Of a stretch of DNA of 57,997 nt, positions 4,678-55,291 are shown one piece after another. Numbering within the stretch: position 1 is the first letter of the stretch; each line of letters begins with the position of its first letter. Source of the stretch: a virus (Duplodnaviria > Caudoviricetes); IMG/VR virus record IMGVR_UViG_3300020442_004525, positions 1-57,997 of that record; one strand, written 5' to 3'. Position numbers and translations under genes: made by a program. The notes beneath the pieces were generated by a model. The model made no database searches. It had not been told where the DNA came from and was given only the letters and a program-made list of their open reading frames with translations.

Positions 4678-5796
4678 ATGAAAGAAGAAGATCCATCACT
4701 TAAGAAAGTCGCTGTTGAGCTTTTTAAAATGCAGCCTGATGCTCTGGTTGAATTTTTTGAGATAGATTTCTCTAACCTTCAGGAGGATTTTAGGGAATTA
4801 GAAGAAAAATATGGTAAGCCATTGGGTCTTGCTCAAGGTGCAGAGTCTGTATATAGATTTACGTCAAATATAAATGGGTCTAATCCTTTATACTGGCAGG
4901 GTAAAGGTTATCAACCTCTACCTATTGAGACGTCGGACTTCGAGTCGCCTTCTGACGGAAGGCTTCCTCGACCCAAATTGGTTATCGCTAATCCTTCTGG
5001 GCTTTTATCCTCTATAGTTGCTGTTAATCATGACTTTCATGGGTGCAAAGTAACCAGAAAAAGGACTTTTGTTAAATTTTTAGACGACCAAAATTTTCCA
5101 GCAAATAGTTTTCAGTATAAAGATGTTGATGGAAATTTGATTGATGTTGTAAGAAACCGAACGCAGGACGAGTCGGGTAATGCTATACCTGGAACTAATC
5201 CTTTTGGTAAGGCTGACCCTAATGCTCACCTGCCTGACGATATCTATTATATTAATCGTAAGGTTATGGATTCCAAAACCAGCATAGAGTTTGAAATGAC
5301 ATCTATACTGGAAATTGGAGATTTAAAGTTTCCTGACAGGCAAATCCTTGCAGACTACTGTGGTTTTAGATATAGGGATTCTAGGTCTTGCGGTTATAAA
5401 GGTCTACCCGTAAAAGGGCCTAATGGACAAAGGTTTTCTGTATATGGTATTTATGAATTAACTTTCATTAACTCTAAGGGTGTTAGGAGGACGCTAACAG
5501 ATGATACATTAAATACCGTTCCTTTCTGGGACTCTTCCATACAATACCAAAAAGGTGACGTTGTTAGATTACCTATAGGTCGGCACCCTTCTGTGGAGTC
5601 TTATTATGTATGTATAAAAACACCAAAAAATAATGTTCCCTGCCCCTCACCCTCTTCTAGTGAAGAGATTTGGGTTTTAGATGCTTGCCAAAAAGATTTA
5701 TCCAGCTGTATATGCCATTTTGGTAAAGAGGCTGCGAGCAAAAAGGGGATAAATTTTGGAGGATTTCCGTCTACTGAGGGCGCTAGGTTTTCTTAA
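4678..5796 (+). CDS. Minor tail protein gpL-like (Fe-S cluster tail-tip protein)
   Basis: LVEFFEID, WQGKGYQPLPIE, GRLPRPKLVIAN, KVTRKRTFVKFLD; Cys set YCGFRYR..CGY...DACQKDLSSC; terminal FGGFP. Confidence 0.9.
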   Translation: MKEEDPSLKKVAVELFKMQPDALVEFFEIDFSNLQEDFRELEEKYGKPLGLAQGAESVYRFTSNINGSNPLYWQGKGYQPLPIETSDFESPSDGRLPRPKLVIANPSGLLSSIVAVNHDFHGCKVTRKRTFVKFLDDQNFPANSFQYKDVDGNLIDVVRNRTQDESGNAIPGTNPFGKADPNAHLPDDIYYINRKVMDSKTSIEFEMTSILEIGDLKFPDRQILADYCGFRYRDSRSCGYKGLPVKGPNGQRFSVYGIYELTFINSKGVRRTLTDDTLNTVPFWDSSIQYQKGDVVRLPIGRHPSVESYYVCIKTPKNNVPCPSPSSSEEIWVLDACQKDLSSCICHFGKEAASKKGINFGGFPSTEGARFS

Positions 5797-23500: not shown

Positions 23501-23660
23501 AGTTGTTGAAACAAGAAAGACGGGTAAGGCGGTTAAATATGAAAAGCTTACGCCCCTGTTAATTGAAGCCGTAAAAAGTCAGCAAGAACAAATTGAGTCT
23601 CTTAAGAAATGTGTTGAAGAATTAACATCAACCATTAACAAGCTTAAGCAGGACTCTTGA
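11553..23660 (+). CDS. Giant (4035 aa) tail fibre/adhesin with FN3-like domains and a C-terminal Peptidase_S74 intramolecular chaperone
   Basis: FN3-like PFPPEGLQV...FFLEWQSP...FYNLYY. gpJ-type IGQANISNATITSAQITDLSADRITAG. Beta-roll repeats SAIVGGGANRI/SIIGSGFGN. C-terminal SDEKYKDNI...GVSFDW...VGVIAQEVE...VKYEKLTPLLIEAVK. Confidence 0.85.
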   Translation: MSSRVNILVSFKIYSKTDTYYLVGSSNTGSFTHKLGRGWDADGSPDLYHSRIDVSEVADLEANGFLVSKVVPLGEKYGDYRMRMYAENELGIRSAYVELDKVIPAPDIDGTFRFNSIYVDRLIEEKPSAYSVVKKSPRRAAPSLELDNSLVVESEFIGRSALIKWDLKAPYGFTGSPKGTLVQPSNIDLFESLFSHFEVYFYKENPEERISTQDDVNSPPAGSAVFDSELPVSEVGQIVDLSFDKRVGEKIIDEDNFEIGFSKNFIEDLMGDGERFIYVKVVGKDIFYNSADDKYMHRFTGVIKVENTRSRIQEAFADLYGNQMTLSYVNRDRDFQGGKVVLRSFSSQDNVTWTHSDSAVLNSAGASNVFKQKWSSPTNRNYYKYILEIHDSYGFCGYHSVSSRGVLKGFFTKKLTGETQGEDTQEEALDAAIVDTHAWQSERKIGSISIKENGSSFDVSWNVVDSQGHLISPPAPSKDASGVPIFTMGDRIEIEDLAGFTVNFECPDEYINSGNSFPIRDAFDLGILGIEAEDQNGNKTYKAGSPENDSFGQLVIPETIGITDGVLTAENKLSINLDTSIQLSKQENADLYRSWFNHLNYTDVPVGSEFRVLYEENNNTDVGSYKDKGFYAVDAQRRIKLAVSLIDSEGRIIDTKIGEGYNAPPRILVKQGLSSDPSSVSSASVRSTDLVEFKLSLNEKTNTVAVFRRPVEEPNKEEVGHPDFEDKYYGIGGESNVDKTRVDDPDHAKPISVYNFKDADYFAKDNPTSKDVMLYGFGVEMDRWVKDDDPEDFISNAEYVLLPDDAEAMVAAGASNHKKQYVRFEVTGKNISNAEEGGFFTAFIDSKGNKANSDSFGTKNFLAGGRVIGSDNNITIVDQPPLIREQGLLRRKAPGTQYDYMLLPFDSFGTGEAWLPDRINFYGGVLFSQDENGAIGTVDFDAPFPPEGLQVRGANKTFFLEWQSPAFDAGDVDFYNLYYINDSRSETERLGLGGSDTRIADGDILRFNKDDYVHEDSEFHAIDLDFQAENNNTFGSVVPWQEQAYNKNHYVKSRPRGDSSKAFRLYKANADTTENDIPGKSDLWDEQVNVQLWENGTAIHRDDVKFNERSSQQESDGGGGSQTFGLIFYSSFKNYTPGQIAFRDNKCYICTGATTGNFNAQNWSLVEGVSIEEIKIPVTETSLTVVADTNDKGYFFFESVDRIQNRSRLHVDPTKPESESNEYTHQLGKSTLKDIANFEQELSAEFPNAIMLRPSDPFEIVDKTNYDNAKIKWKAHYLYNDGYGYFMPAGEISLRSDATYIKDKTIDSGQFIRHIYWNPRYGYNTNATSDPWTARITESTTVRENQLPYRKKSGHDEAPTRISSETFNELAQTRWVAKSDSNVTDREVFSDPGSSDYYEWSSSMYEEVPAAERDNDSSLSDKESDTNIDYRAYYSFSTGNPASQIYNRRQQGTDHWLSDPTRSSTIYDELNKVTDVIHETAAPVGFGTFGLHITRSESMKTNKSPENNVTDGLLEDGGFQICRIDHIGGEYSHTVNFEVFNNATIGQANISNATITSAQITDLSADRITAGIIGSHRIQIGNALIPEVTDGSLGDAQDDSHNGGPASVMPDGTSLAAGADDAYTNSKYVYGSITSQGFDHTTKGKPGFFISGDGQFGFQTTNGGIYLRGGLDTDRNQDNSPTQLVIRGTLIQENSDPFVKMEMSSSVQNLSFNEHAENHFYYENNGKYNIYGTEATVLRPSNGEVTVSYNIQNAYHTDGSPYDINELQLIMYVDGDPSRTIDQKDVFKLIKSSALPTYQQRWVLKSIWHGSSVNRDSTLLQPDQILTSDPNDPDLYEEILVQESSVHGECLVNGSVDSTRKNKTACENGTPAGAWVPVVRDTGPNLGLNDVDDLNKGGSITFDFVGGRYGDTAELVDAEPSMIFFTGAPITDVSEVVERIEEEDLNDVGEDPGNTLIPIADSVTIVLRMVSRAPVWSSTQTYLAGELVNHSGKVWRSVHNGSNNKDQTPSSSSTYWDEEPAGEVVVEEKSVTIFRKDQPTNLASIDLVSTGSGIIRNSDSNESVTVKPVLTHGATQYSLEQTSDLEDWMKTLRGQMAIYQGPPNLLKQNKYKLLTSGKDASFSITLKNEDVLEGKTTLYLVDTKDNSNWPDARDSLSVYKEVATIDVIDVNDGVDVGHIDLDKADKFYTREYLIRPSSGGTVDYSSSYKLEEIDEKTFDATIRITSQDGRELSKEIFVKIKNVALGKYIEKKDITIEDKSGNTICSFASNAENLAPVMVPFTLDNDNEVSKQSEYDVVTGDSADDLKKTGVGRVYFSVDNRQHVTEIVIRFDFIKTRGNTIAVIGSDNETSSTHYKVHPLDSVKTWGGFSGENFTFAADMVPQISVEENILINTLIRPNPSFRLSLTKPYITYSRNSINDNNQTSNQNLLRRSENIIPIQLYMGEDNITDEVDNKPTGAEFSMDIIPTFGFVVSYEFLNGTHSDDKCYWPKNETAARSAIDDLKSEDIEEGVYYDKASGIWKIADSDGSHIAADSNFLYYIPPRLSDLPGMGNSKIKIKASYTRSNVPVASSGLRGASNGAFATDNFTDIETINVVETLNGESAPFAIQTNETVAVEVNPAGKIIKAVSETTFDSEVRVKVADDDVALLNSSDQLLDGFVLSSASTSPAINRIVFESSSAKSIAHNTTLTFKNSGGSDVKLYDFDDSEIKIKTKDGSTASVKYISMFDENDSNQTGMLEAGHTLAFYDNSGKIVASSKMPKIFKQGIALLVNDKFTDDINSQYFATNQEWKKVASNNKNDTYVISDFMWGAGATGSNPTGSKELLVGDTIMNDSGQAWFGSDANSAITVQAQIAFYATSRTWRTDEVVSTSVSRQVRSATQGETGATIVYRSGRWTASTQYIGTTKRREVVRHEDKYYITTENASILAFGLNSLAELESTGDLSFDALYQGENDSSDANTLSKWKQAFQGQTLSDQEITERRLKPGFAGDNVNNVAPIWEEFGVQVESVATNLLLAHDVRVQRGIVAGLDDATEGFFASQIDITHLDANGDYKYGYDARPGERAVSIKIPDNPIAIGKFADREFKNENGVSVTLAEYQNLTAEEKDRYSQFDKTGTEHANSPEVAYLLGDSDYDAGHPFNPTLTTTWKVPFTNVPGFFIGYHRLAYDLSSDADPFLRKDYSEQADFQNTFNSHLPMMEFRSHTGNFLRWDGLRLEMYGSVINGSVNPSNISISLGVSDSIRVFSDQTLYSGQIFCGGGFNNYLPDSLESLGSAIVGGGANRIYGKFSAIAGGYGNSIHGSFSFIGSGFGNVINTGSTGLLGYSSKVAGAEDMNKKFSEVPANSMDNMVKGFYQEIFNRDGSQAEHTYWKNSAINNNWTISQLYGTITNSDEYWENGMRNKVDVGWGSSYGGEKIEGNSISNPFNAIVTGKGNSIIDSKYSIIGSGFGNLIDNSQYSSILNGQGNSITHRDSGARRDSNVTDSGIYITNEGTTNAKLGDGTNAMIAASSSSRSSETMYQGLSVFNNLKKKEGDDNENWYIVNKVNVNKEDGDFDAIDDDDIDVSSLMIYDNTDGWYFMASERRFNAWVDGGRDPNLKFGRWAYIPAVAGPYFWCPVTLQYYSLKTGPSDILLTASQAVAQAGVTGDGQFEWSWVVLSEDNLDYHTISETTIRSQKPGFLPDLELLNFIDMSLPVDAKNGSGRFGYNTIAGGSRNLINRSSNSALIGSANSYVSDLKNAVVGGMTNRIFGSAVKVDGSGATVSRMAKDLQKGVTVFGSENIFDVRDVNWAYDDLMSAIVGSQNTIIGCRKSVILGTGNQLKGGNKPITPSGTAGLNSSGWSTLYGATTPSYYSISGTEVNILGTNNVIRGSNLFARNLSIFGSNFVLTSQEQIVNSYYIGNPFPAGGLLTRLFVAADGGAYFTGDVVSFALSDEKYKDNIQLISDPIDKIKGIRGVSFDWNDQQEVYQGHDVGVIAQEVESVFPEVVETRKTGKAVKYEKLTPLLIEAVKSQQEQIESLKKCVEELTSTINKLKQDS

Positions 23661-24395
23661 TTCTGCTGGCGGTATGTCTGTCCAATCTTCCCAAGAGGAT
23701 GCTGCTTCGTGCCTATACTTTCCATCCCTCCACCAGTCTCTTAATACTTGTTTGAAATCTTCAAAAGATGCGCAATTCATTTTATTGGCTGCGTTTGATT
23801 CTAGTATTGACGATGGAGTGATTCCGCTTGGGGATTCTGATTTTTGTAGAGAGCTATTTTTCTTTCCGTTGTTTTTATTTATTTCATCGTCTCCAACGAT
23901 ATGTACGTTTAGGAAATTTCTAACACACCTTACGAAGGCTCTATTGCAGGCTATTGTTTCTAGGAAGATTTGACCAAAGTCACTGGTATTATTGATTGTT
24001 GCATTAGCCATGTCTTCGAAGATTACAGAATTCCCGCTGGTTTCATAGTTACCTGTGAATTTAATAGTGCATATAACCGCAACGTGTTCTTCGCTGCATT
24101 TTTCAACCTTATACCTAACTTCTTCGATACCCCTAAGCCTGGCAAGTTCTTTAATTCCACTTAGTTTAATTAGAAGTTGATGATCTTTGAGTCCTTCAAT
24201 AGAGGATGGGTATTGCATGTTTCTGCTTTTGAACCAGTCTCTGTTTGGGAATAGATGCTCTTCTCCTATCATGGCTCTCCAATTAATCGAGCCATCTTCA
24301 TTGAATGAATAATTGTGATTTGTTAACAGGCCGTTTTCGTCTCTCTTGAAGAGACTTGGGCTTGGCGAGGTTTTTTTAGTTGTTTTAGTTGCCAT
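23628..24395 (-). CDS. Putative single-strand annealing/recombination protein (Rad52/Sak-like)
   Basis: LSGIKELA...VAVICTIKF...LETIACNRAFVRCVRNFLNV resembles phage SSAP cores. It has its own sigma70 promoter. Confidence 0.45.
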   Translation of the reverse strand: MATKTTKKTSPSPSLFKRDENGLLTNHNYSFNEDGSINWRAMIGEEHLFPNRDWFKSRNMQYPSSIEGLKDHQLLIKLSGIKELARLRGIEEVRYKVEKCSEEHVAVICTIKFTGNYETSGNSVIFEDMANATINNTSDFGQIFLETIACNRAFVRCVRNFLNVHIVGDDEINKNNGKKNSSLQKSESPSGITPSSILESNAANKMNCASFEDFKQVLRDWWRDGKYRHEAASSWEDWTDIPPAESRVLLKLVNG

Positions 24396-25548
24396 AATTA
24401 AATATTTTGAAAAATTCTATTTCTTTATAAAACTCGGGCGAGTCTATAACTTTTTCTACATCACTTTTTTCTATACCCTGATCTAGGTAAGCTTTGCATG
24501 AATAAAATTTATTGTCTGATATGATCATTAGTGATGATTTAAAGTAAGAATTATCGCATAAAATAGAAGAATTGTCAAGATCTTTTTTTGTTGTATACTC
24601 TTGCTCTTTTATATTTAATGGAAATAGATCTAATCTTACATCCGATATATTGCTTGATCCTGTATAGTTGATTGCTAAATTTATTCCTGTAGCTTTTAAT
24701 TTTAATACATAATCATTATTAATTCCTTCATGTAATAATAATATTATTTTTTTAATATTCTTTTTATGTTTTCTTAAAATATTTAAATCTACTTCTTTAT
24801 CTATGTATAGAGCAATTTGATGATTCTTTATCCAATATTCTAGAAACTCCGTATTGTCTGTATAGTCTTGTCTTATTGTTAATATTGAGTTCTTTAGAAA
24901 GTTTATGTTTTTATTTGGAAAAAAGTTTGGAACAATATCTGTTACAACTTGACTGTAAGAATCTCCTAGGTGGACTGCCTCTGTTTGATTTATTATTCCA
25001 TCTCCGAGTAGTAGCTTAATTAATTCATACGCTATTTCGTTTGGGAATATTTTATCTATTCTTTTTTCTTCTTCATTAGGGGCGTAAGAAGGTTTGAATT
25101 TTGTATAATCTGGAGAAAAGAATTTATGCTCCCCTTTCCAAAATGGATGGCAGGTGTTTGGGAACGTTGGCCCGAATAATGTTACTAGCGGAACATTATA
25201 AAAACCTGCCACATGAGAAGAAAATGAATCATTGCTTAGGTGCAGCATGGATTTACTGAGTATAAAAAAAGTTTCTCGCAATTTTGTTTTACCTAGAAGG
25301 CTTATTGTGCCGTCTATGTGAGAATCGTGCGTTTCGCCAATCTGTAGGATGCTTATACCCCTCTCATCTAGGACGGGTTTAATTATTGATATTACATCTT
25401 TATAATGACTGTAGTTCTTGGAGTTCATGCCTGAGCCCGCATGAAGGGTAATATACTTATCCGCAGGAGGTGGATAGAATAAGGGTTCTATATGGGGTTT
25501 TGATATTTTGACCCCTGCAGTTAATGCGAAATTTTCAACTAGGTGCAT
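24385..25548 (-). CDS. Glycosyltransferase family 9-like, C-terminal (nucleotide-sugar binding) half plus extension
   Basis: YITLHAGSG...K.Y, ILQIG, LLGKTKLRETFFIL, NDSFSSHVAG..NVPLVTLFGPT. Confidence 0.8.
   Translation of the reverse strand: MHLVENFALTAGVKISKPHIEPLFYPPPADKYITLHAGSGMNSKNYSHYKDVISIIKPVLDERGISILQIGETHDSHIDGTISLLGKTKLRETFFILSKSMLHLSNDSFSSHVAGFYNVPLVTLFGPTFPNTCHPFWKGEHKFFSPDYTKFKPSYAPNEEEKRIDKIFPNEIAYELIKLLLGDGIINQTEAVHLGDSYSQVVTDIVPNFFPNKNINFLKNSILTIRQDYTDNTEFLEYWIKNHQIALYIDKEVDLNILRKHKKNIKKIILLLHEGINNDYVLKLKATGINLAINYTGSSNISDVRLDLFPLNIKEQEYTTKKDLDNSSILCDNSYFKSSLMIISDNKFYSCKAYLDQGIEKSDVEKVIDSPEFYKEIEFFKIFNYGN
24550..24578 (-). promoter_or_regulatory. sigma70-type promoter inside the GT9 gene, upstream of the SSAP-like gene
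   Basis: TTGACA (24578-24573), 17 nt spacer, TGc-GATAAT (24555-24550). Confidence 0.65.
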
Positions 25549-27482
25549 AATTCTAGGGAGATTTTATCTTCTCCGTTTCTTGTGTAGTTTAATACTCTTT
25601 GATTGTTTACATTTAATATAATTGCCACATTAAAAAAACTTTCTTGATCTGGCCTGTCGGTCCTATTGCTAAAACCCTCTAGCATTAGGGCATCAGAACA
25701 GAATGGGTCATATGGTATAACCTTATAGAGGTAAGGGTTTCCTTCGAGTATGGGGAAGTATTCTTTATTTGTGATAAAATAAATATCATAATCTTTATAA
25801 GTTTTGGATAAGTCTTCGAATAAACTTGTGGCCATGAAAACATCTCCGATGCTTTTTGGCAGTACAAGTGCAATTCTTTTATTGGGTCTATCAAAGTCAA
25901 TATACTCTCTTATGTCGTACTCTTCGCGAGGTCTGCTTGCAACTTCTTTTTCGTTATTCTTTTTTAAGGCTGATAGTATTTTTTCCCTAGGGGTTCCCGC
26001 CTGAAGTTTATTTAATAAGAATGGCAAGACTTCATCTCTTTCAGATATTTTAAGTTTTAATATTTCATTATATATAAAAAGTATATAATCTTTATCAGAT
26101 AAACCTTGTGGTATTGGCTTGGAGAAATCCGCTTCTAGACTACTTAATTTATAATCCCAAGATATTTCCTTGGGTTCATCTATGAGTTTCATTAATTTTT
26201 TACAATTGTTTTCTATAGAATATTCGTTTAATACGAAATCCCTACCTGTCTTACCCATTCTTTCTCTTTTTTCTTTGCTTAATTTGGAAACTTTTACTAG
26301 TTTAGAGAAAATACTCTCGGGAGAGGTGCTTGCTTTGATGAATTGGGTGTTTGGTTCCCTGTATTCGTTCCATGATAGTGGGAAACTTCCTGTTGATTCA
26401 CTGGAGCAATCCTCTCCGCAGCTATAATTGGTCACTAGGGTTACTAATTCACAAAGCTTAGCTTCTTGTATGGGGATTTCTTGACCACCTGAAGTAAACG
26501 GGTGGCAGTATACATCCATTAAATTATATATTTCATTTAGCTGCTTTTCAGAAGGGCCATTATGAACCGTTATCGTTTTCTGGGAAGCTTTCTCCCCACA
26601 AAACCTACAATCCTGCGGGGTTTGTTTTGATTTTGACTCTCCTTGGAATGGTTTAATTTCATAATTACCACACTCCTTGCAATAGTAAGTTGTTAGTACG
26701 TCACTATTATCAACTTTTTTTTCTTTTAATAAAGAAGGTATATCCCAGCCTTCCTCCCACGAGGTGTGCAGTAAGAGTTTTGCGTTTTTATTTTTCTCTT
26801 TAAATTTTAAGAAGCCATCTACTAAATTGGTGACAGATTTTCTTAACTGATTTCTGAAAACAAAACCTATGATAAAATCATTTTCACTTATACCGAATCT
26901 ATGTCTTAATTCTGATTTATGTTCATTGCTTAATTTAAAAAAGTTTTTAGAGTCTACTGGGCCGTGAATGCATTCTGTATTTTTTACACCTTTCGATTTA
27001 AGTTCTTTTTGTGGGAAATTGGACCAAGTTAAAAAATGGTCTGTATTTCTCGCTGCCTCATATGCTGACTTCAATATCGGGTTTGAATCTAATGTTACCC
27101 ATAGGATTGTTTTAATCTGTCTCCACCATTTGCGCTCCCACAAACCAGAGAAAGCCCAGAGGTCTTCAGCTCCTATATATACGTCAGGTTTTTCTTGCTC
27201 TATGACATCTTCTATCCTTAGGTGTCCATAACCTACTTTATTTTTAAAATTATTATCTGATTTAATTCTTTCTTCTACGGCCTGATCGTCTGGAAAACCT
27301 CCCACAGCTTTCCATGGGAAAGTCTCTAATGCTGGAGAGTTTTCTTTAACGCCATTAGCGAGCTCTACGATATCATATTTTCCGGTTTTGTATAAATAAG
27401 TTAAAACGTTTCTAGCGTTCTTACCGAAACCAGATAATACTTTAGAGCAATTGCTGTGGTATAGAATTTTTTTTTTAGCCAT
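25539..27482 (-). CDS. GT4-like glycosyltransferase with a Zn-ribbon insert, a DUF4214-like helical domain and a C-terminal GT9 N-domain
   Basis: SGFGKNA, GFVFRNQLRK, EIYNLMDVYCHPFTSGGQEIPIQEAK. CKEC/CRFC insert. IALVLPKSIGDVFMATSLF...ILEGNPYL. Confidence 0.82.
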   Translation of the reverse strand: MAKKKILYHSNCSKVLSGFGKNARNVLTYLYKTGKYDIVELANGVKENSPALETFPWKAVGGFPDDQAVEERIKSDNNFKNKVGYGHLRIEDVIEQEKPDVYIGAEDLWAFSGLWERKWWRQIKTILWVTLDSNPILKSAYEAARNTDHFLTWSNFPQKELKSKGVKNTECIHGPVDSKNFFKLSNEHKSELRHRFGISENDFIIGFVFRNQLRKSVTNLVDGFLKFKEKNKNAKLLLHTSWEEGWDIPSLLKEKKVDNSDVLTTYYCKECGNYEIKPFQGESKSKQTPQDCRFCGEKASQKTITVHNGPSEKQLNEIYNLMDVYCHPFTSGGQEIPIQEAKLCELVTLVTNYSCGEDCSSESTGSFPLSWNEYREPNTQFIKASTSPESIFSKLVKVSKLSKEKRERMGKTGRDFVLNEYSIENNCKKLMKLIDEPKEISWDYKLSSLEADFSKPIPQGLSDKDYILFIYNEILKLKISERDEVLPFLLNKLQAGTPREKILSALKKNNEKEVASRPREEYDIREYIDFDRPNKRIALVLPKSIGDVFMATSLFEDLSKTYKDYDIYFITNKEYFPILEGNPYLYKVIPYDPFCSDALMLEGFSNRTDRPDQESFFNVAIILNVNNQRVLNYTRNGEDKISLELCT

Positions 27483-28024
27483 CAGAAGGGAGCTTCATCT
27501 TGGTCTAATACGTCACCTTGATTGCTGTCTACTTCTTCTTTAGCTTTACTTTTAAAATTTGAAGCTGTCTCTTCAAAATATACGAAGAGGTACTTTTTCA
27601 TAAAAGATTTTAAGGTTTCAGTTTCCCCTGGTTCAAGTGGGATTCTAAAAGTTTGATTTCCATTCCTTGTTAAAACCATTCCAAATGCGGGTATGGTGTT
27701 ACCCTGCTTAGTTTGCTTGTCCCACGGTGTGAATTTAATTGATGTACTATTATCGTTAAAAGTATGATAAGAGCTGTATTCATACCTATGGTTGAATGCG
27801 GAAATAATTGAGCCAATCTCCCATTCGTTGAATTTAACATTAATATTCTTTTCTGGGTTATCTTTATTCTGGGAAAAGCTAGCTTTCTTAGTTTTGTCAT
27901 TCCAGCTATGTTGTTGAATGGCGCTAACATAAAACGAAGGAGTTCCATTTGGTGATTTTCCTACGCTAAAATTGCAAGCACAACCAGAATTTTTACTATT
28001 TGGTTTGTATAGACTTAGATTCAT
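27482..28024 (-). CDS. Putative Whirly/PC4-fold ssDNA-binding protein with an acidic SSB-like tail
   Basis: SLYK...VKFNEWEIGSIISA...YH...IKFTP...FRIPLEPGE pattern and C-terminal DQDEAPF. Confidence 0.55.
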   Translation of the reverse strand: MNLSLYKPNSKNSGCACNFSVGKSPNGTPSFYVSAIQQHSWNDKTKKASFSQNKDNPEKNINVKFNEWEIGSIISAFNHRYEYSSYHTFNDNSTSIKFTPWDKQTKQGNTIPAFGMVLTRNGNQTFRIPLEPGETETLKSFMKKYLFVYFEETASNFKSKAKEEVDSNQGDVLDQDEAPF

Positions 28025-28040
28025 AATTTAATTGCTTTAA

Positions 28041-28069
28041 ATTATAGCAAAATAATATCTTTATGTCAA
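28041..28069 (-). promoter_or_regulatory. Perfect consensus sigma70 promoter for the Whirly-like/GT operon
   Basis: TTGACA (28069-28064), 17 nt spacer, TGc-TATAAT (28046-28041). Confidence 0.85.
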
Positions 28070-28073
28070 GTAA

Positions 28074-30557
28074 TTATTGACAGCTTTCACAAACCTCTCC
28101 ATTTTTCATGGCTTCAATGCTACAAGCTGAAGGTTCGCTAGTTGCTGTTGAGGAGGTTTCGCTTGTGACAGATTTTTCAACTTTTGTTGCTGCCTGATTC
28201 CTTAAATAGTAAGTTGTCTTTAGTCCGTGTTCCCAGCAGCTCATGTAGATATCGTTGAGGTATTTTAGGGAAGACGTACTATTGTAGAGGTTAAAACTTA
28301 CCGCTTGGTCTATCCATTTTTGCCTTACTGCGTTACATTCTATTAGCTTGAACATATCCCTGTCGAAAGCGGTCTTGTACTTTTCTTTAAGATCGTCTGG
28401 AATATTTCCATTAAGAAATTTTAAGTCTCCATCGGCTTGCTTAACTAAACCTGCGATTTCACTATTCCACAAACCTCTCTCTTTCATATCGTTTACGAAA
28501 TGAGGGTTTGTAATGAAGAAGTTTCCGCTTTTATTTTCGTAAACAAAAAGAACTGAGAAGTTGGGCTCTATGCTCTGTTCTATCCCGTTGATATAGCCTA
28601 TTGTTGCTGTTGGAGCTATTGCCATAACATTAGAATTTCTCATTCCGTGTTCTTGAACGTGCATTCTTACTTCTTTCCATTCGTCAAGAGTTTGCCCTTT
28701 GCCTGTTAATGGTTTGCCTGTAACAGACTGTTTAGGGACTTTTTGAACCCCTCTATAAACCATTAAGTTATTATAGGAATCGATTGGAAAGACCCCTTTG
28801 CTCCATAATGAACCTTCATAGGTTTTGTATGCGCCTTTTTCCTTGGCTAGTATAGAACTTGCGTATATCGCCTGCATGGAATAGAACTCAAATAGTTTAT
28901 CGTTGAATTCTACAGCTTCATCACTATCTATATTTATGTTTAGCTTATGCAGGACGTCATGAAGTGCCATCATGCCTAGACCTATAGGCCTGTGTTGCAT
29001 ATTGCTGTTTCTGGCTTCCGGTGTTGGATAAAAATTTAAATCGACTACGCTATCTAGCGCTCTAATCGCTGTATGAATTGTTGTTTTAAGCTTATCATAA
29101 TCAATACCCCCATCTTCTTTTAAATGGTTTAGTAGATTGATTGAGCCTAGATTGCATACCGCTGTTTCTCCAATCTCGGTTTTTTCACCCTTGTCGTATT
29201 TAGAGGCTTTTGTATGAAGTGTAATCTCGGTGCAGAGGTTACTACTGTGTACCACTCCTTCATGTTGATTGGTATACCTGATATTACAGGGGTCTTTAAA
29301 CGTGTTCCATGGATGAGAGGTTTCAAAGAGAACCTTGAGCATTTTTTTCCACAGTTCTTTGGCTGGAGTTTTTCTAAAGTTTTTAATTTCGCCGTATTCT
29401 GCGGCACGGCATGCATCTTCATACCTATCATCAAATTCTTTACCAAAGAAATCATGTAAGGTTCTTCCGTCTTCGTAGGTCATTTCAGAGGGATCGAAAA
29501 AGTACCAGTCTTCTTCGTTCTTGACCCTCCTCATGAATTCATCGGGAATCCATGCCGCCGTATTCATGTCGTGGCACCTTAATCTATCGTCTCCTGTATT
29601 TCTCCTGAGATTAAGAAAGTCTTCAAAGTCTAAATGCCAAGGTTCTAGGTATGCGCAGCCTGCTCCAGGCCTCTTTCCTCCTTGATTAACTGCAACTAGT
29701 AAATCGTTATATATTTTTAACCACGGGACTAAACCGCTAGATATTCCATTCGTGCCTTTAATGTGGGAACCTGTAGACCTGAAGGGTGTAACATCTAGGC
29801 CTAAGCCTCCCGCATACTTACTCTTTCTTGCTTCTTGCCAAGCTCCATCGAAAATACCGTCGATGCTATCATCAAAAGTATTTAAATAGCAAGAGCTTAA
29901 TTGAGATCTAACTGTACCACTATTAAAGAGGGTGGGGGTAGATGATGTATAAAGGAATTGACTGAACATGTCGTAATATTTAATCGCCCACTCCTCTTTG
30001 TTTTCTTCGTTTAAGGCCAAGCCCATGGCAACCCTCATCCAAAAACTCTGAGGAGCTTCCATGATTTTCCCGTCCTCTCTTATAAAATACCTATCTGTTA
30101 GAATCTGAATCCCTAGATATTTAAAGGATAGATCCCTTCTGATTTTTAAAGCTTCTGAAAGTTTCTTTAGGTCATACTCTAGCATTCTTTCGTTTAGCTT
30201 TCCTGATTTAACAAGTTTCTTTACGCCTTGTACGAAGCTCTTTCTGTACTGGAGTTTAAAAATATCTGAATCCACTCCTTCTCTAAATACTTCCTTATAT
30301 AGTGAGTTTAGTAGTAGTCTTGCTGCAGCGAAGGAGTAGTTTGGTTCTTTTTCTATTTTTTGCCTCGCTGAAAATACTAAAGCGCTATCAATTTCTTGGG
30401 TAGTAATTTTGTTAAAAAGACCTATCTGTGCATCTAGTATAACCTCGCTGGCTGAAACACCATCTAGTTCTTCGCATGCTCTTTCTGCACATTTGTTTAT
30501 TTTTTCTACTTTGAAATCTTCTAGTCTTCCGTTTCGTTTCTTTACTTGAATATTCAT
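28074..30557 (-). CDS. nrdA: Ribonucleotide reductase class I alpha subunit with ATP cone
   Basis: VKKRNG ATP cone, TPTLFNSG, QLSSCYL, SNLCTEI, VCNLGSINL, AIAPTAT, GLKTTYYLR, C-terminal CESCQ. Confidence 0.96.
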   Translation of the reverse strand: MNIQVKKRNGRLEDFKVEKINKCAERACEELDGVSASEVILDAQIGLFNKITTQEIDSALVFSARQKIEKEPNYSFAAARLLLNSLYKEVFREGVDSDIFKLQYRKSFVQGVKKLVKSGKLNERMLEYDLKKLSEALKIRRDLSFKYLGIQILTDRYFIREDGKIMEAPQSFWMRVAMGLALNEENKEEWAIKYYDMFSQFLYTSSTPTLFNSGTVRSQLSSCYLNTFDDSIDGIFDGAWQEARKSKYAGGLGLDVTPFRSTGSHIKGTNGISSGLVPWLKIYNDLLVAVNQGGKRPGAGCAYLEPWHLDFEDFLNLRRNTGDDRLRCHDMNTAAWIPDEFMRRVKNEEDWYFFDPSEMTYEDGRTLHDFFGKEFDDRYEDACRAAEYGEIKNFRKTPAKELWKKMLKVLFETSHPWNTFKDPCNIRYTNQHEGVVHSSNLCTEITLHTKASKYDKGEKTEIGETAVCNLGSINLLNHLKEDGGIDYDKLKTTIHTAIRALDSVVDLNFYPTPEARNSNMQHRPIGLGMMALHDVLHKLNINIDSDEAVEFNDKLFEFYSMQAIYASSILAKEKGAYKTYEGSLWSKGVFPIDSYNNLMVYRGVQKVPKQSVTGKPLTGKGQTLDEWKEVRMHVQEHGMRNSNVMAIAPTATIGYINGIEQSIEPNFSVLFVYENKSGNFFITNPHFVNDMKERGLWNSEIAGLVKQADGDLKFLNGNIPDDLKEKYKTAFDRDMFKLIECNAVRQKWIDQAVSFNLYNSTSSLKYLNDIYMSCWEHGLKTTYYLRNQAATKVEKSVTSETSSTATSEPSACSIEAMKNGEVCESCQ

Positions 30558-31473: not shown

Positions 31474-31892
31474 GATAGATAGTCCGAGCAAACCCCGAAA
31501 CAATTCTGGTACTTTGCGTATTTAGAGTTGTTGCATACTATTATAGATTTCTCGCACACTTTTCTGTGCGGATATGTCCAGATAAACCCTTTTGAGGTTA
31601 ACGTGTACGCATCGTTCTCGTGCCAAAAGACATTGAGTTGATGCATTGATGATAGTAATTCAAGTGATTCTATGTTTTTACAATGAATCCAAAGACTGTC
31701 TCTATATTCTAATAGGAAATCTAGATCTATGTCGTACTGCGCTTGGTCATGCCCTGAGTAAAATCCATCGTGAAACCAAACGTCGATTTCTGCATCAAAG
31801 CCTTTGTTGATTGCATGTACGATGTGATTCGGATTGTTTTCATTTTCTGGATCTTTTCCCGAGGTATTGCCTCTATGCGCTATTAGTTTCAT
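31470..31892 (-). CDS. Short glycerophosphodiester phosphodiesterase (GDPD/PLC-like)
   Basis: LIAHRGN...EN...GFDAEIDVW...GHD...WIHCKN...GVCSD. Confidence 0.8.
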   Translation of the reverse strand: MKLIAHRGNTSGKDPENENNPNHIVHAINKGFDAEIDVWFHDGFYSGHDQAQYDIDLDFLLEYRDSLWIHCKNIESLELLSSMHQLNVFWHENDAYTLTSKGFIWTYPHRKVCEKSIIVCNNSKYAKYQNCFGVCSDYLS

Positions 31893-33258
31893 AATTATTT
31901 ATGAAAAAACTTAAATCCTCAGGAGTTCCCAAGCCCCACATTGAGTCTTTTGGTATTCCGAAAATTTTAATTTTCTCTCCATTTAATATACACTCATTAT
32001 ATACTGGGCAAACGTAAAATTCGTTATTGGTTCTGATATTTTTCTCGATCATTTGCTCCGCAGCTCTGACGTAATTCTCTCCGTGCTTGAAATAATAAAC
32101 CCCCACAGTTGCATGGTTGCTTATGGGTTTTTTCTCTGCGACCTCTTGAACGAACCCATCTTCATCGAGTTTTGCGTATGACCATTTCGGGTGAGAGGAT
32201 TCAAATGTAAGTATACCCCCATCCGTTTCATCTCCTATCATTGAGTACATGAATTGATTACTATCCCAATCTAGAAATTGGTCTGAGTTGGCTATGAGTA
32301 GTGGTTCTTTATTGTTTATAAAACTTTTCGCTAGTAAGGTTGTGCATGCCGCACCTTCTGTTAAGCCTTCTACTTGTATGATTTTGCAGTTTGGGGCTAT
32401 TAGATTTAGGGTATGCTGTAGTGCGTATTTTTCGTAGTGGGATTTCTGTACTATGAATATGTAGTTTGCGTTGATATTTAAACTCTCTACTACGGCTTGT
32501 ATCATCGGCTTTCCTTTTACGTCGATGAGTGGCTTGGGAAAAGTGTAACCCGCCTGCTCGAATCTACTGCCCGCTCCAGCCATTGGTATTAGTACGTTCA
32601 TGCTCCCGCCTTCCCATTTTGTTTTTTCATAAGGTTTGTCTTCGATTTTGTTTATATAATTCATAATTTTATTAAAAGTTAAATCATCAGGATTTTTAAT
32701 GGCTCCTAAGTGGGCTCCAGAATTTAGCACCGCTTCCCTTCCTGTGTTGGAGTCTTCTAATATTAACGTGTGCCTTGAGGGAATACCTGACTGAGTCATG
32801 ATCTTATAATACATTTCAGGGTTAGGTTTAGATCTTAATACGTCTTGATTTGATACTATATGGTCAAAGAAATGCAATATTTTTTTATTATGTAATGATG
32901 TTATTATACTATCTCTTACTGAGTTTGATGCTACTGATAATTTAAAATTTTGATCTTTTAATTTTTGTAGTATTAAGGATAATCTTCTATCCTCTACATA
33001 ATTATTCATTAAGTTTAATGTTATTTCTTGTTTTCTTGCCCAGACTTGGTTGTACATGTCTTTTGGTAGACCTTTGTTTTTGGTTAGTAATTCTAATTTT
33101 TTTGTCGTTGGTAGTCCATCGTAAGTTGATAGATGTTCCTCTTTGGTTATTGCGAAATCTGGGCATATTTCCCTGAGTGCGGCGTCAAATGATTTAAAGT
33201 GTAACTCTCTAGAGTCTATGAGCACACCATCTAGATCGAATATAATTTGTTTTATCAT
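31873..33258 (-). CDS. HAD phosphatase fused to a sugar nucleotidyltransferase-like (BcbE-type GT-A) domain
   Basis: IIFDLDGVLIDS, SKPNPE, ILEDS (HAD). IPMAGAGSRF...PKPLIDV, TEGAACT, IANSDQ, VAEKKPIS, NNEFYVCP, GLGTPEDL. Confidence 0.9.
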   Translation of the reverse strand: MIKQIIFDLDGVLIDSRELHFKSFDAALREICPDFAITKEEHLSTYDGLPTTKKLELLTKNKGLPKDMYNQVWARKQEITLNLMNNYVEDRRLSLILQKLKDQNFKLSVASNSVRDSIITSLHNKKILHFFDHIVSNQDVLRSKPNPEMYYKIMTQSGIPSRHTLILEDSNTGREAVLNSGAHLGAIKNPDDLTFNKIMNYINKIEDKPYEKTKWEGGSMNVLIPMAGAGSRFEQAGYTFPKPLIDVKGKPMIQAVVESLNINANYIFIVQKSHYEKYALQHTLNLIAPNCKIIQVEGLTEGAACTTLLAKSFINNKEPLLIANSDQFLDWDSNQFMYSMIGDETDGGILTFESSHPKWSYAKLDEDGFVQEVAEKKPISNHATVGVYYFKHGENYVRAAEQMIEKNIRTNNEFYVCPVYNECILNGEKIKIFGIPKDSMWGLGTPEDLSFFINNYETNSA

Positions 33259-35407: not shown

Positions 35408-35719
35408 ATGAAAATCATAAAAAGCCAAACATCGTCATCAGTATTTTACTACATCAGTTCGGGTAACTGGAGTTCTGTGGTATCTGCTAGATCCAGGAAG
35501 GATGCCCTAAGGCAGTTATTTAATGATATTATTAAAAATCCTGGAAGATACGGTCCAATAGGTACTGTTATAGTATTAATGGATATTGATGAAGCTATGA
35601 AAGACTTAACGCTGGAAAGCGCTCTTAAATTTATCTCAACAGAGGAAGCTCTTGAGATGGTGGGGGATCCAGATATAAGCGAATCTATTTTAGGGGAGGG
35701 TGATCCAGGTGAATTTTAA
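35408..35719 (+). CDS. Hypothetical protein
   Basis: 103-aa ORF directly after the promoter, first gene of the rightward operon. Confidence 0.7.
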   Translation: MKIIKSQTSSSVFYYISSGNWSSVVSARSRKDALRQLFNDIIKNPGRYGPIGTVIVLMDIDEAMKDLTLESALKFISTEEALEMVGDPDISESILGEGDPGEF

Positions 35720-36269
35720 TGTAATAGGAGTAATGGGTAATGCTAGATCTGGTAAAGATACTGCATACCTGTCGATTAAAGATATATTCTTTGATCTTAA
35801 AGTTCATCGGGTTGCCTTTGCAGATGAATTAAAAAAAGAGTGCGACTCATTCCTTAGAGATAATATAGGAATTTCTGCATTCACCGAATCCCCAGAGGAA
35901 AAAGAGATTATTAGACCCTTCTTAGTTACATATGGAACTCATGTTAGGAGGAAACTAGATCCTAATTGCTGGATCAAGAAAGCGGAAGAATCTATGTGCC
36001 ACGAGGGTGATAGTGTTAATGTCATTACGGACACTAGATACCCAAATGAGGCTAAATGGATCAAACAAAACAAAGGGTTACTAATATTTCTTAGCAGGGA
36101 TGGAATAAAACCAGCAAACGAAGAGGAAGAAATAAACAACCCTATATTACAATCAATGGCGGATGTAGTAATCGAAATGCCAACCTTCCAAAAAGACTAT
36201 TTATCAAGATGCAGACATATAATCCAGAATCAGTTAAACAACTTACAGATACAGAATTGTGTAGCTTAA
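35709..36269 (+). CDS. Deoxynucleoside monophosphate kinase (T4 gp1-like)
   Basis: P-loop GNARSGKDT, FADELK, RPFLVTYGT, VITDTRYPNEA. GTG at 35709 follows a GGGGAGGG SD. Confidence 0.85.
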   Translation: MNFNVIGVMGNARSGKDTAYLSIKDIFFDLKVHRVAFADELKKECDSFLRDNIGISAFTESPEEKEIIRPFLVTYGTHVRRKLDPNCWIKKAEESMCHEGDSVNVITDTRYPNEAKWIKQNKGLLIFLSRDGIKPANEEEEINNPILQSMADVVIEMPTFQKDYLSRCRHIIQNQLNNLQIQNCVA

Positions 36270-36823
36270 TTAAACGACATAACTCAAATGAAGCATTAGG
36301 TGAACTAAACAATCGCCACGGAGCTTTAATTGTATCTATAGCAACAAGGTTATCCAAAAAATATGACAATTGGAATATAACCCAAGAGATTATAGATGAT
36401 GCATATTACATCATGTACCTCTCTGCATTAAAGTATAAACCAGATAAAAAAACTAAATTTTCTACTTTCGTTGGCAATGAGACAAAGTGGGCTTACTTAA
36501 ATAAGTGCAATAAATTTAAAAACCTAGTATCAAACATATCAAAACTCGAGTTAATAATGAAGTTCATTCCATCAACCACACAGAACGAGTCATCACAGGA
36601 CGAATTACTAGATTGCGTCTATTCGTTAATAAATACCCACCCAGACGTAAGGATGCATAAAATATTTAAACTAAGATATCAAGTGGGAAAAAATAACAAT
36701 GTAATGCCCTGGCATTTAATAGGTTATAAACTCGGATTAAGTGCGCAAGGTTGTATTAATATACATAACTCGGGAATATCTTATTTGAAAGAAAAACTAA
36801 AAAAGGAAGGAGTATCATGTTAA
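36209..36823 (+). CDS. Phage RNA polymerase sigma factor (sigma70 family)
   Basis: TDTEL...EALGEL; region 2 ALKYKPDKKTKFSTFV; region 4 IFKLRY...PWHLIGYKLGLSAQGCINIH...LK. Confidence 0.8.
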   Translation: MQTYNPESVKQLTDTELCSLIKRHNSNEALGELNNRHGALIVSIATRLSKKYDNWNITQEIIDDAYYIMYLSALKYKPDKKTKFSTFVGNETKWAYLNKCNKFKNLVSNISKLELIMKFIPSTTQNESSQDELLDCVYSLINTHPDVRMHKIFKLRYQVGKNNNVMPWHLIGYKLGLSAQGCINIHNSGISYLKEKLKKEGVSC

Positions 36824-37197
36824 ATAGATTTTCAGCAATAGGGAACTTAACGCAAGACCCGCAATTAAGGCCTGTGTCAGACAAATACAAAGTTTGCAAA
36901 TTCACGATCGCAATCAATAATCCCATCAGGAAAACAGTCTTATTCATGGATGTTGAAACCTGGGGTAAAACCGCAGAGAACTGTCAAAAATTCCTATCAA
37001 AAGGATCATCTGTAGCGGTTGATGGCAGGCTAGATGCCAGTAAGTGGCAAGACAAAAACGGAGTTAACAGAACAAAGATGTTTTGTACAGCAGATAATGT
37101 TCACTTCTTAAAAGGTAAGAGTAACGAAGGGCCACAGCAACCCTCTAGCCAGGAAGAATTTGATGAGGAAGAGGATCCAGATGAAGTACCATTCTGA
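36817..37197 (+). CDS. ssb: Single-stranded DNA-binding protein
   Basis: NRFSAIGNLTQDPQLR, WGKTAE, KGSSVAVDGRL, acidic tail DEVPF. Confidence 0.95.
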   Translation: MLNRFSAIGNLTQDPQLRPVSDKYKVCKFTIAINNPIRKTVLFMDVETWGKTAENCQKFLSKGSSVAVDGRLDASKWQDKNGVNRTKMFCTADNVHFLKGKSNEGPQQPSSQEEFDEEEDPDEVPF

Positions 37198-38288
37198 TGA
37201 ACGAAATTATAATAAAATGCCCAATAAACCACCTCTCTTACGGAAATATATCTTACAATATCTTAAGAGAGTTATTTAAATCAGGTATAAAAACATCCAT
37301 ATTTCCTGTATCAAATAAAATAGATATATCAATTTACGACAAGACAACTAAAGATTTTTCTGACTGGATTCAGGAAGGGGTAAGCCGGAGATACATGCAT
37401 TTAGACAGGGATGCACCATTCTTAAACATATGGCATATAGCGGGAGCAGAAGATAGAATATCAAATAATTCCGTATTATATACATTCCATGAAACTAGCG
37501 AAGTGACAGAACAAGAAAAGAATATATGCAAACTATACAATAAAGTTATTTTTAGTAGTACCTACTCCTCAGATATCTTTAATAACTCAGGCTTAGAGCA
37601 CTGCGGGTACTCAAATCCGGGCTTTGATGAAGATTTATATATAAATAATTCATATAAATTAAAAAATAAAATACACTTCGGCATAATGGGTAAGCTTGAA
37701 AACAGGAAGCATACTATAAAATTAATAAAATTATGGATCAAAAACTTTGGAAATGATCACAATTATCAATTGTCATGCTGTGTAACAAACCCGTTCTTAC
37801 CAAAGGATCATATCGACAAATTAAAAGAAGTAGTATTTGACGGAAGAAACATAACAAATGTAAACTTTCTTGAATTTATGCCAAAAAATTCTCAAGTAAA
37901 TGCTTACCTAAACTCAATAGACATCGATATAGGTGGGATGAGCGGAGCAGAAGGCTGGAACCTACCATCCTTTAATGCTACCTGCCTAGGAAAATGGAGC
38001 ATAGTGTTAAATTGCACGGCGCACAAAGATTGGGCAAACAAACACAACTGCATCTTAGTTGAACCAAACGGACAGGATAGTATAGAAGACGGCGTCTTTT
38101 TCACCAAGGGTTCTGAATTCAATGCTGGAAATAAATACTCATTTAATAATGAAGACTTTGAAAATGCACTACATAAAGCTATAAACAAAGTAAAGAATAA
38201 CATAATAAATGAAGAAGGATTAAAATTAACTAAAATTTTCACATATAAAAATACATTAAAAAATATTATAAAACATTTTGATATATAA
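37197..38288 (+). CDS. GT4-like glycosyltransferase
   Basis: LSYGNIS, YTFHE, GKLENRKH, SGAEGWNLP. Confidence 0.78.
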   Translation: MNEIIIKCPINHLSYGNISYNILRELFKSGIKTSIFPVSNKIDISIYDKTTKDFSDWIQEGVSRRYMHLDRDAPFLNIWHIAGAEDRISNNSVLYTFHETSEVTEQEKNICKLYNKVIFSSTYSSDIFNNSGLEHCGYSNPGFDEDLYINNSYKLKNKIHFGIMGKLENRKHTIKLIKLWIKNFGNDHNYQLSCCVTNPFLPKDHIDKLKEVVFDGRNITNVNFLEFMPKNSQVNAYLNSIDIDIGGMSGAEGWNLPSFNATCLGKWSIVLNCTAHKDWANKHNCILVEPNGQDSIEDGVFFTKGSEFNAGNKYSFNNEDFENALHKAINKVKNNIINEEGLKLTKIFTYKNTLKNIIKHFDI

Positions 38289-54185: not shown

Positions 54186-55291
54186 AAATAGCAATAACAT
54201 CTAAATTCACATCAAGTTTTTTTTCAAACGGTTTAAACCAAAACCTAGTACTATTATATGAATGCTTAGAACAGTGTGGATTTGAAGTTTATTTTCTAGA
54301 TTTTACAAATAAAAATAACAACGAAGTCTTTAATGAGCATTTCTTCCTGCAAAACAAAAACATATTAAACTGGTGGGAATTTCAAGATTCAACACTACAA
54401 ATAGACATGCTATTATGCCCCGGAGTTTCAGCAAATACAGACATCAAAAAATGCTTAAGGCTTAAAAATCCGTCCGTAAAATTCGTAGCAGTTAAGTATG
54501 GCAACAATTTAATAACTGACAGTCATAAATTTTTTCTATCAAACCCTCCTATATATTATTCAATGGATTCAGACAGGGGAATGGATCACGTACTTTACTC
54601 ACCTCACTATAAATTCCAAAGACAGTATTATGAATTCACAGAACGAGCTCCAAGCAGCGAAATACCATACATATGGGATCCAAAATTTATAGAGTTTGAA
54701 AGTAATAACCTATCAATAGACCCAACCTTTAAACCTTGCGAAAAACCAAACATAGCAGTAGTAGAGCCAAATTTAAACATATCAAAAACATCATTCTTAC
54801 CCTTTCTATCCATAGTAAACTTAATCGAAAAGAATAAGTCGAACACGTTCGACCAGGCTTATATTTTTTCAGCCAACAATAATACAGATCACACAAACCT
54901 CGCAGAATACCTCTATAAACATACAATCCTAAAAGAAAACAGGGCAAAGATCTTCTTTGATCAAAGAGAAAAGATGCCAATTATTTTATCAAGAGATAAT
55001 CCAATTATACTATCTCATCAGTTTTACAATGAATTAAATTATGTATACCTAGAAGCAATCTATTACAACTATCCATTAGTTCATAATAGTGAAGCATTTA
55101 AGGATTACGGCTTTTACTACAGTGGCTTCAATATAGAAGATGCATCAAATCAACTATTACTTGCGATAGAAAAAGCTAAAGATTGGCCAAGAGATATCTC
55201 ACACATAGGCTTACATCTAATAGAGAAATACAGTATCAAGAAAAACAAAAACAAAATAAAGAAAATTTTACTAGATATAAAAAATGATTAA
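54182..55291 (+). CDS. DUF2827-like putative glycosyltransferase (paralogue 2)
   Basis: SFFSNGLNQN, IPYIWDP, EPNLNISKTSFLP, SHQFYNELNYVYLE..YPLVHNS..YGFYY. Confidence 0.78.
   Translation: MKIAITSKFTSSFFSNGLNQNLVLLYECLEQCGFEVYFLDFTNKNNNEVFNEHFFLQNKNILNWWEFQDSTLQIDMLLCPGVSANTDIKKCLRLKNPSVKFVAVKYGNNLITDSHKFFLSNPPIYYSMDSDRGMDHVLYSPHYKFQRQYYEFTERAPSSEIPYIWDPKFIEFESNNLSIDPTFKPCEKPNIAVVEPNLNISKTSFLPFLSIVNLIEKNKSNTFDQAYIFSANNNTDHTNLAEYLYKHTILKENRAKIFFDQREKMPIILSRDNPIILSHQFYNELNYVYLEAIYYNYPLVHNSEAFKDYGFYYSGFNIEDASNQLLLAIEKAKDWPRDISHIGLHLIEKYSIKKNKNKIKKILLDIKND

Follow-up and report, generated by a model that had tools for sequence, protein, structure and literature searches.

Predicted Whirly-fold proteins with SSB-type C-terminal tails in a family of uncultured phages

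Bacterial SSBs, the proteins that bind single-stranded DNA (ssDNA), recruit partner proteins through their C-terminal tip, and the replicative SSBs described so far are, to our knowledge, nearly all of the OB-fold type. Tetramers of Whirly proteins, known from plants as WHY1/2/3, StWhy2 and PBF-2 p24 (PF08536), have solved structures. Recent papers treat Whirly as unique to plants or as dating to the ancestor of Chloroplastida, and phage proteins with this kind of fold are already known as such, namely ChmC, the type II PC4-like protein of T5 and viral proteins automatically named 'Whirly'. Here we describe a gene in the virus record IMGVR_UViG_3300020442_004525, analysed as the complete record of 57,997 bases (the window; CheckV completeness estimate 38%), whose product combines a predicted Whirly fold with an SSB-type tail and belongs to a widespread phage family (at least 453 clusters) with the predicted fold, detectable Whirly similarity and SSB-style, putatively docking tails; many members also stand in the SSB position of a replisome operon. 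We infer with moderate confidence that it is a tetrameric, Whirly-fold ssDNA-binding protein of the phage replication/recombination module, with a tip that recruits partners. In the titles and abstract openings searched, no Whirly-fold protein with an SSB-type tip, no Whirly-fold protein in a phage replisome operon and no phage relative of plant Whirly is described.

The window protein shares with plant Whirly the predicted beta4-alpha/beta4-alpha fold, a predicted helix-mediated self-association and a core of about 150-180 amino acids (aa), and its second repeat and helices give a sequence match that is remote but specific; it differs in being encoded by a phage and not by a plant nucleus, in falling under the Pfam threshold, in its acidic Pro-Phe tail and in a first half that lacks detectable sequence similarity. 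ChmC (PhiPA3 gp61, Chimalliviridae) is likewise described as a Whirly-fold protein of a phage, homotetrameric and disordered in its C-terminal region, but it differs in its beta-beta-beta-alpha repeat, its preference for RNA, its 50-70-residue, N/G- and S/D/E-rich, condensate-driving tail and its genomic context, and no sequence relatedness to the ChmC family was found, with tblastn of three family members matching none of 50,697 GenBank phage records at E ≤ 1e-3. The type II PC4-like proteins (T5 PC4-like 4bg7, YdbC, SP_0782) are ssDNA binders of the same superfamily, and that of T5 has been linked to recombination-dependent replication (PMC7549692); they are single beta4-alpha units that dimerise, whereas the window protein is a tandem type I unit. 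With the OB-fold SSBs (PF00436) it has in common a disordered acidic Pro-Phe C-terminus, identical at four of the last five residues to that of the phage's own SSB, and it differs from them in having no OB fold, a very short linker (about 13 residues) and mostly Ala, not Ile or Val, at position -3 of the family's tips. The gene and the parts of its product are as follows.

27482..28024 (-): gene of the predicted Whirly-fold protein (P0001), 180 aa plus stop
27788..28024 (-): residues 1-79, first beta-sheet and helix 1 (H67-79), with a conserved N-terminal YKPNxKNxG; from the AlphaFold2 (AF2) secondary structure and invariant columns
27524..27778 (-): residues 83-167, second four-stranded sheet and long helix 2 (H132-167) in the AF2 model; the portion that aligns by sequence to plant Whirly
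27485..27523 (-): residues 168-180, low-confidence and probably disordered acidic tail ending DQDEAPF, with a per-residue model confidence (pLDDT) below 50 at residues 171-177

Predicted fold and kinship with plant Whirly

A sequence-only reading of the window had reported a 180-aa minus-strand open reading frame (ORF) with a series of motifs and a DQDEAPF end, and all of these are present in the translation of 27482..28024 in the order quoted (LSLYKPN, VKFNEWEIGSIISAF, EYSSYHTF, SIKFTPWD, AFGMVLTRN, TFRIPLEPGETETLKSF and the C-terminus LDQDEAPF). The same reading had proposed a duplicated PC4/Whirly fold, and the repeated beta4-alpha topology on which that proposal hung is present in the predicted structure: the AF2 model, built from a narrow alignment of 36 close relatives (A1; 32 invariant columns), reached a pLDDT of 89.4 and displays the tandem beta4-alpha (type I PC4-like) arrangement of Whirly, the first-sheet region, where Whirly proteins have a conserved lysine-containing motif (KGKAAL), carrying an invariant YKPN...G...A motif in the family. 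Foldseek against the PDB returned 17 matches at E ≤ 1e-3, of which ranks 1 to 10 were all plant Whirly proteins (WHY1/2/3, StWhy2, PBF-2; E 3e-05 to 1.6e-04, target-normalised template modelling (TM) score 0.52-0.65), followed by trypanosome MRP1/2 and then Pur-alpha; type II PC4-like proteins were absent from the matches listed.

Sequence comparison led to the same proteins through a broadened family alignment of 101 diverse members (A2). Searched against 177,635 PDB sequences, its profile placed WHY2 (E 0.0074), two StWhy2 entries (E 0.0075 each), WHY1 (E 0.45) and WHY3 (E 0.91) as the top five, with profile positions 56-151 aligned to Whirly residues 63-164. The family segments K-l-n-e-f-E-i-G-g-i-i, f-s-a-y-H, g-f-s-l-s-v and f-s-i-g-l-e-x-g-E-a-e-l-L-k were paired with the Whirly segments aLSptEvGSLIS, EFFH, YFISLSV and FVVPVTKAEFAVMK, respectively, so that the plant Whirly motif order, which the sequence-only reading had quoted, was reproduced for WHY2, StWhy2, WHY1 and WHY3 alike. 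The Pfam Whirly family was matched by 6 of the 101 members (best E 5e-05), and no other Pfam family by more than one. Among the PDB sequence searches, only the broad A2 profile reached Whirly: single-sequence phmmer listed none (best E 1.6), and A1 did not find it, its sole PDB match being an adenovirus fibre (E 0.065) that was set aside. A single-sequence search of PHROGs with the window protein matched 0 families, and its sole Pfam hit, DNTTIP1_dimer (E 0.032), lay under that family's cut-off and was rejected. These results support the view that the window protein is a remote but genuine Whirly relative with a type I PC4-like fold, below the level required for Pfam membership.

Among viral proteins, the nearest named clusters in the protein Atlas carry PF08536 in 13-25% of their members (one structural match at TM 0.63/0.87), and the best BFVD match was A0A6J5NR37 (141 aa; E 1e-05, target-normalised TM 0.67), which comes from an uncultured phage and bears the name 'Whirly transcription factor'. 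Such database-named viral proteins are small and are the closest viral structural neighbours of the window protein, but they are shorter (127-141 aa), and no publication on them was found in the literature searched.

AlphaFold modelling of a tetramer, put forward as a check by the sequence-only reading, passed its controls. In three runs the four-copy model reached a score of 0.90, compared to 0.00 for the best of three controls, with contact agreement of at least 83% and partner pLDDT of at least 81. The mark it reached had been calibrated (20 of 30 proteins whose solved structure is a pair of one chain attain it, as against 1 of 23 whose solved structure is a single chain) under conditions from which four copies and a custom alignment depart. 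The predicted interface consists of helices 67-82 and 131-154, which at the model level reproduces the helix-built homotetramer of Whirly. Residues 177-180 (window 27485-27496), corresponding to the APF tip, are among the confident inter-chain contacts of the four-copy model, and in this model the tip may dock back onto the tetramer.

The phage family, its C-terminal tails and canonical SSBs

A word-indexed homolog search gave 160 proteins at E ≤ 1e-3, all unnamed or 'hypothetical', and an exhaustive search gave 453 cluster representatives (50% identity) at the same threshold, all from uncultured phages; no precomputed Pfam domain was attached to the 120 matches listed in either search. For the neighbouring glycosyltransferase (GT), tblastn against the GenBank phage records yielded only 24-25% identity to three Synechococcus phage records. 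Since the GenBank searches were empty for the three family members and weak for the GT, no cultured relative or host was identified, and the phage belongs to a group without a GenBank relative detectable via the Whirly-like protein.

The disordered acidic Pro-Phe end of the bacterial-type SSB is found in the window protein, and the phage also encodes a canonical SSB, about 9 kb away.

36817..37197 (+): canonical OB-fold SSB, 126 aa, ending DPDEVPF; PF00436 E 2.1e-23, the only PF00436 match in the window record

A canonical SSB with a DEVPF end had been reported alongside the Whirly-like protein, and this gene bears the report out. Of the 85 window ORFs with 70 aa or more, no others than the ORFs of these two proteins end in DE[AV]PF, and DEAPF and DEVPF agree at four of the five last residues; the Whirly-like protein itself does not match PF00436, and an OB fold was not found in it. 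The only other window ORF with an acidic-aromatic end (GEGDPGEF) is a 103-aa ORF at 35408-35719 (+) that matches no family.

Tails of this kind are common in the family. In A1, an acidic tail ending [AVP]PF is carried by 31 of 36 sequences, whereas four are tail-less and the remaining one has a YEF end, and at the related viral loci found with A1 (the best 80 of 191 confirmed relatives) the tail ended in PF at 69, was absent at 7 and was of another kind at 4. A census of 452 unique full-length family sequences gave the following classes.

Acidic, ending PF: 154/452
Acidic, ending W: 110/452
Acidic, ending F other than PF: 30/452
Acidic, PF plus 1-3 further residues: 13/452
No acidic tail: 134/452
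Other tail: 11/452

Acidic tails ending in PF, W, F or PF plus further residues thus amount to 307/452, and at position -3 the PF class (n = 154) most often has Ala (102 sequences), followed by Val (33), Pro (12) and Ile (3). On a FastTree phylogeny of 171 core sequences from which the tails had been removed, the tail classes required at least 10 changes, compared to a mean of 85 after shuffling, and a single well-supported set of 69 rows contained all 52 with a PF tail and also 15 with no tail. Because the changes are so few relative to the shuffled trees, tail type is best read as a clade-specific trait of lineages, with several losses or alterations.

Tail type also goes with the company of a canonical SSB. 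The presence of PF00436 proteins was judged on whole records, absence within a 10-kb reach being unreliable.

W or F tail: PF00436 SSB in 0/9 whole records (three records 91-100% complete, the rest 66-87%)
PF tail: PF00436 SSB in 4/4 whole records and in the window, one SSB each
No tail: PF00436 SSB in 2/2 whole records, both SSBs ending [IV]PF

At the PF-tail loci with a complete SSB ORF within 10 kb, the SSB ended in [IV]PF in 19 of 19 cases, and at the tail-less loci L064-L067 and L069-L071 the adjacent SSB, encoded upstream at a distance of about 2.1 kb from the Whirly-like gene, ended in FEF and not in PF. A search for the gp32 type (PF08804) matched 0 of 5 records, and says little because its positive control matched nowhere. 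Taken together, these three combinations favour an SSB-like function of the family and a tail that serves to dock clients, since W/F-tailed members lie in replisome operons of phages in which no Pfam SSB was found, PF-tailed members accompany PF-tipped SSBs and tail-less members occur with an SSB.

A tip so close to that of an SSB might also act as a decoy that titrates host SSB-docking proteins (repair and restart enzymes, or defence sensors), in which case the protein would serve takeover or counter-defence and DNA binding would be secondary. A near-identical tip, the four copies of it that a tetramer would show and a strong host-type promoter suited to early expression (described below) would all serve this purpose; yet in genomes that yielded no SSB, W/F-tailed homologs stand among the phage's own replisome genes, which fits a working SSB better than a decoy, and the core is far more conserved than a scaffold requires (32 invariant columns in 36 sequences). 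We hold the decoy to be very unlikely.

Replisome operons, the downstream cassette and the proposed role

The position of the gene in relatives points to DNA replication. The complete 178-kb record G005, which carries a W-tailed member and was annotated throughout with Pfam, has the gene order DnaB-type helicase, DnaG-like primase, PD-(D/E)XK nuclease, PHP domain protein, RNase T-type exonuclease and DnaE (DNA polymerase III alpha), followed by the Whirly-like gene (54189-54755; product ending EEEDTW) and a 645-aa GT1-like gene that is the ortholog of the one at window 25539-27482 (phmmer E 1.9e-166). The nuclease of this operon (G005 48850-49833; L246:8850-9833) is itself acidic-aromatic at its C-terminus (DDDPFLDF). 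Scanning viral contigs with the alignment of the W-tailed subfamily (A3) yielded 520 relatives, of which 80 were kept, and with that of another subfamily (A4) 488, of which 80 were again kept. At 76 of the 80 A3 loci (at least 3 kb of upstream sequence being available at 72) the Whirly-like gene has a DnaE homolog upstream, and at 56 this homolog ends within 300 nucleotides (nt) of the Whirly-like start. Judged by gene order, the Whirly-like gene in these operons occupies the place expected for an SSB gene. Among the relatives of the window phage, each of the four complete records contains DnaE, though in the closest of them a distance of 41 kb separates it from the Whirly-like gene, and the Whirly-like gene stands next to a ribonucleotide reductase (RNR) gene in L001-L008 only; in the window lineage it has moved to behind the RNR gene and has its own promoter.

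A sequence-specific transcription factor for phage genes, the function first described for plant PBF-2/p24 and PC4, has the history of the family on its side, Whirly proteins having been discovered as ssDNA-binding transcription factors (PMC7549692). The genomic context offers no hint of transcription, however, and both the linkage to replication genes and the SSB-like tails point elsewhere, which leaves this function hardly probable at all.

Downstream, the Whirly-like gene heads a four-gene cassette whose junctions in the window overlap by 1, 10 and 11 nt.

25539..27482 (-): GT1-like protein gene, 647 aa; base 27482 belongs both to its start codon and to the stop codon of the Whirly-like gene (TGATG)
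24385..25548 (-): GT9 (heptosyltransferase-like) gene, overlapping the GT1-like gene by 10 nt
23628..24395 (-): orf255, last gene of the cassette and most conserved neighbour; candidate RAD52/Sak-type annealing protein

Because start and stop overlap at base 27482, the Whirly-like and GT1-like genes are probably translationally coupled. In the best 80 of 191 loci, homologs of the GT1-like gene were found at 72, of GT9 at 71 and of orf255 at 76 (orf255 locus hits in all: 219), and across the three locus sets a GT1-like homolog lay downstream of the Whirly-like gene at 72/80, 75/80 and 77/77 loci, immediately so at 64, 69 and 58. The tail-less clade L064-L071 lacks both GT genes in the cassette, and orf255 directly follows the Whirly-like gene. 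Further sugar-handling genes lie inside the replication module of the window (24385-27482, 31873-33258, 35700-36269 and 37197-38288), the set comprising the GT1-like protein with a Cys-x2-Cys zinc-ribbon-like insert, GT9, an HAD/sugar-nucleotidyltransferase fusion, a deoxynucleoside monophosphate (dNMP) kinase and a third glycosyltransferase, and is compatible with glycosylated (hypermodified) DNA.

This neighbourhood could mean that the protein is an accessory of glycosylation, holding nascent or single-stranded DNA or docking by its tail to let the co-translated GTs act, with the GT1-like protein and GT9, and not the replisome, as main partners. The shared base at 27482, the GT homologs downstream at nearly all loci and the dNMP kinase, fusion protein and third GT nearby, which would be compatible with DNA hypermodification, all agree with such a function. 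Against it stand the cassette of L064-L071, from which the GT genes are absent, and the tails, which resemble SSB tips and track the presence or absence of an SSB. We consider this explanation quite unlikely.

For orf255, the AF2 model (pLDDT 87.2) has a beta-beta-beta-alpha core and a helical domain; its best fold matches were RAD52 of humans (E 3.4e-3, probability 0.92) and Mgm101 of yeast, with target-normalised TM of at most 0.40, and its nearest named Atlas clusters were SSAP_Sak (19% of members) at 0.90 and Rad52_Rad22 (20% of members) at 0.89. Sequence searches gave no PDB hit and no consistent Pfam or PHROG family. That orf255 is a RAD52/Sak-type single-strand annealing protein is a weak lead, on which the fold and language-model comparisons agree.

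In the mechanism we favour for the window protein, the two four-stranded sheets would bind ssDNA, as Whirly/PC4-like proteins do (reviewed in PMC7549692), the two helices would build the homotetramer, and the short, flexible acidic tail ending DEAPF would be a docking tip for partners, like the C-terminal tip of bacterial SSBs. The protein would be expressed from its own strong host-type promoter. With an OB-fold SSB present in the window, it would most likely be a second, specialised SSB, and because it differs from the phage's own SSB at only one of the five terminal residues, it may address the same client or clients. It would probably be specialised for recombination or annealing and work there with orf255, the RAD52-like candidate with which it is co-transcribed; this linkage agrees with studies reporting that annealing proteins of phages rely on the C-tails of their cognate SSBs (10.1101/2020.04.14.041095; PMC5928155). 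If true, the family would represent a new SSB architecture and a natural experiment on the co-evolution of SSB tips and clients, and its tails could be handles for finding cognate annealing proteins for recombineering.

Several observations weigh against this role or against the kinship on which it draws. The window phage already has a canonical SSB, so that the role of the Whirly-like protein may be redundant or different, and the lack of an SSB in W-tailed phages holds for the PF00436 and PF08804 searches, such that SSBs of other types may be present there. The tips are not identical, position -3 being mostly Ala (102/154) as against Ile or Val in SSBs, and the tail is dispensable for the core function, since 134 of the 452 family sequences lack an acidic one. 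The near-universal coupling to GT genes is left unexplained by an SSB role and is its main loose end, and orf255 has no fold match at E 1e-3 or better, which weakens its RAD52-like reading. As to kinship, the window protein does not match Pfam Whirly (PF08536) even at E ≤ 10, a search of five related whole records with the Pfam Whirly model gave no match at E ≤ 1, and sequence similarity to Whirly is confined to the second half of the protein. The four-copy result may reflect likeness to the solved Whirly tetramers and falls short of proof, because such tetramers are already solved and the set-up differs from that of the calibration.

A further point of this kind comes from ChmC, a Whirly-fold protein that forms tetramers and is described as binding RNA better than DNA (10.1101/2023.09.22.559000). 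The window protein might, like ChmC of nucleus-forming jumbo phages or trypanosome MRP1/2, be an RNA-binding protein that handles phage mRNAs, and MRP1/2 are indeed among its fold matches. Its best fold and sequence matches, however, are the DNA-binding plant Whirly proteins; tblastn found no similarity to any of the 50,697 GenBank phage records; relatives lie in replisome operons; and the tail is short and acidic-aromatic, unlike the long N/G-rich region of ChmC. An RNA-handling function therefore appears to be of low probability.

Two wider readings extend the ssDNA-binding role. That Whirly-type proteins are the working replicative, non-OB SSB of a large uncultured aquatic phage clade with DnaE-type replisomes is a tentative proposal, which we would put at somewhat less than an even chance. 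Other organellar replication enzymes are of phage origin, which offers a parallel for a link to the origin of organellar Whirly proteins; here that link is a remote-homology lead. The full scenario, in which a replicative Whirly SSB evolved tips for replisome and recombination docking, retuned them to Pro-Phe beside a bacterial-type SSB and was the source or closest sister of organellar Whirly, is unlikely as a whole; if true, the family would be a concrete candidate for the prokaryotic-virus roots of these proteins.

Promoter, occurrence and other features of the window

A perfect TTGACA-17-TATAAT promoter had also been claimed ahead of the ORF, and it is found there, in the 49-nt gap between the stop of the upstream RNR gene and the Whirly-like ATG.

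28041..28069 (-): sigma-70-type promoter TTGACA-17-TATAAT, with TG before the -10 box; 12/12 consensus matches
28074-30557: class I RNR large subunit gene, upstream neighbour; Pfam E 3.8e-175

This perfect arrangement occurs once in the 57,997-base window, compared to 0.03 expected occurrences, and 3 of 100 shuffled sequences had one. The distance from the -10 box to the ATG is 16 nt, and a Shine-Dalgarno sequence is not visible in it. Relatives mostly carry TTGAxx-16-TATAAT, 33-52 nt ahead of the start codon, and of the 62 distinct regions upstream of the gene in the A1 set, 31 scored at least 10/12. In many of the relatives L010-L060, only about 5-20 nt separate the end of a TATAAT-like box from the start codon, and a visible Shine-Dalgarno sequence is missing; the arrangement suggests that the mRNAs of the Whirly-like gene are leaderless or near-leaderless in these relatives.

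DNA near-identical to the window is contained in marine metagenome runs of several studies, and no RNA runs are among the sequencing runs listed with such DNA. Within window 444-23660 (+) lie three very large co-directional ORFs (1408, 1803 and 4035 aa), and PHROG tail or tail-fibre families were matched by the 1408-aa ORF and by a 372-aa ORF at 4678-5796.

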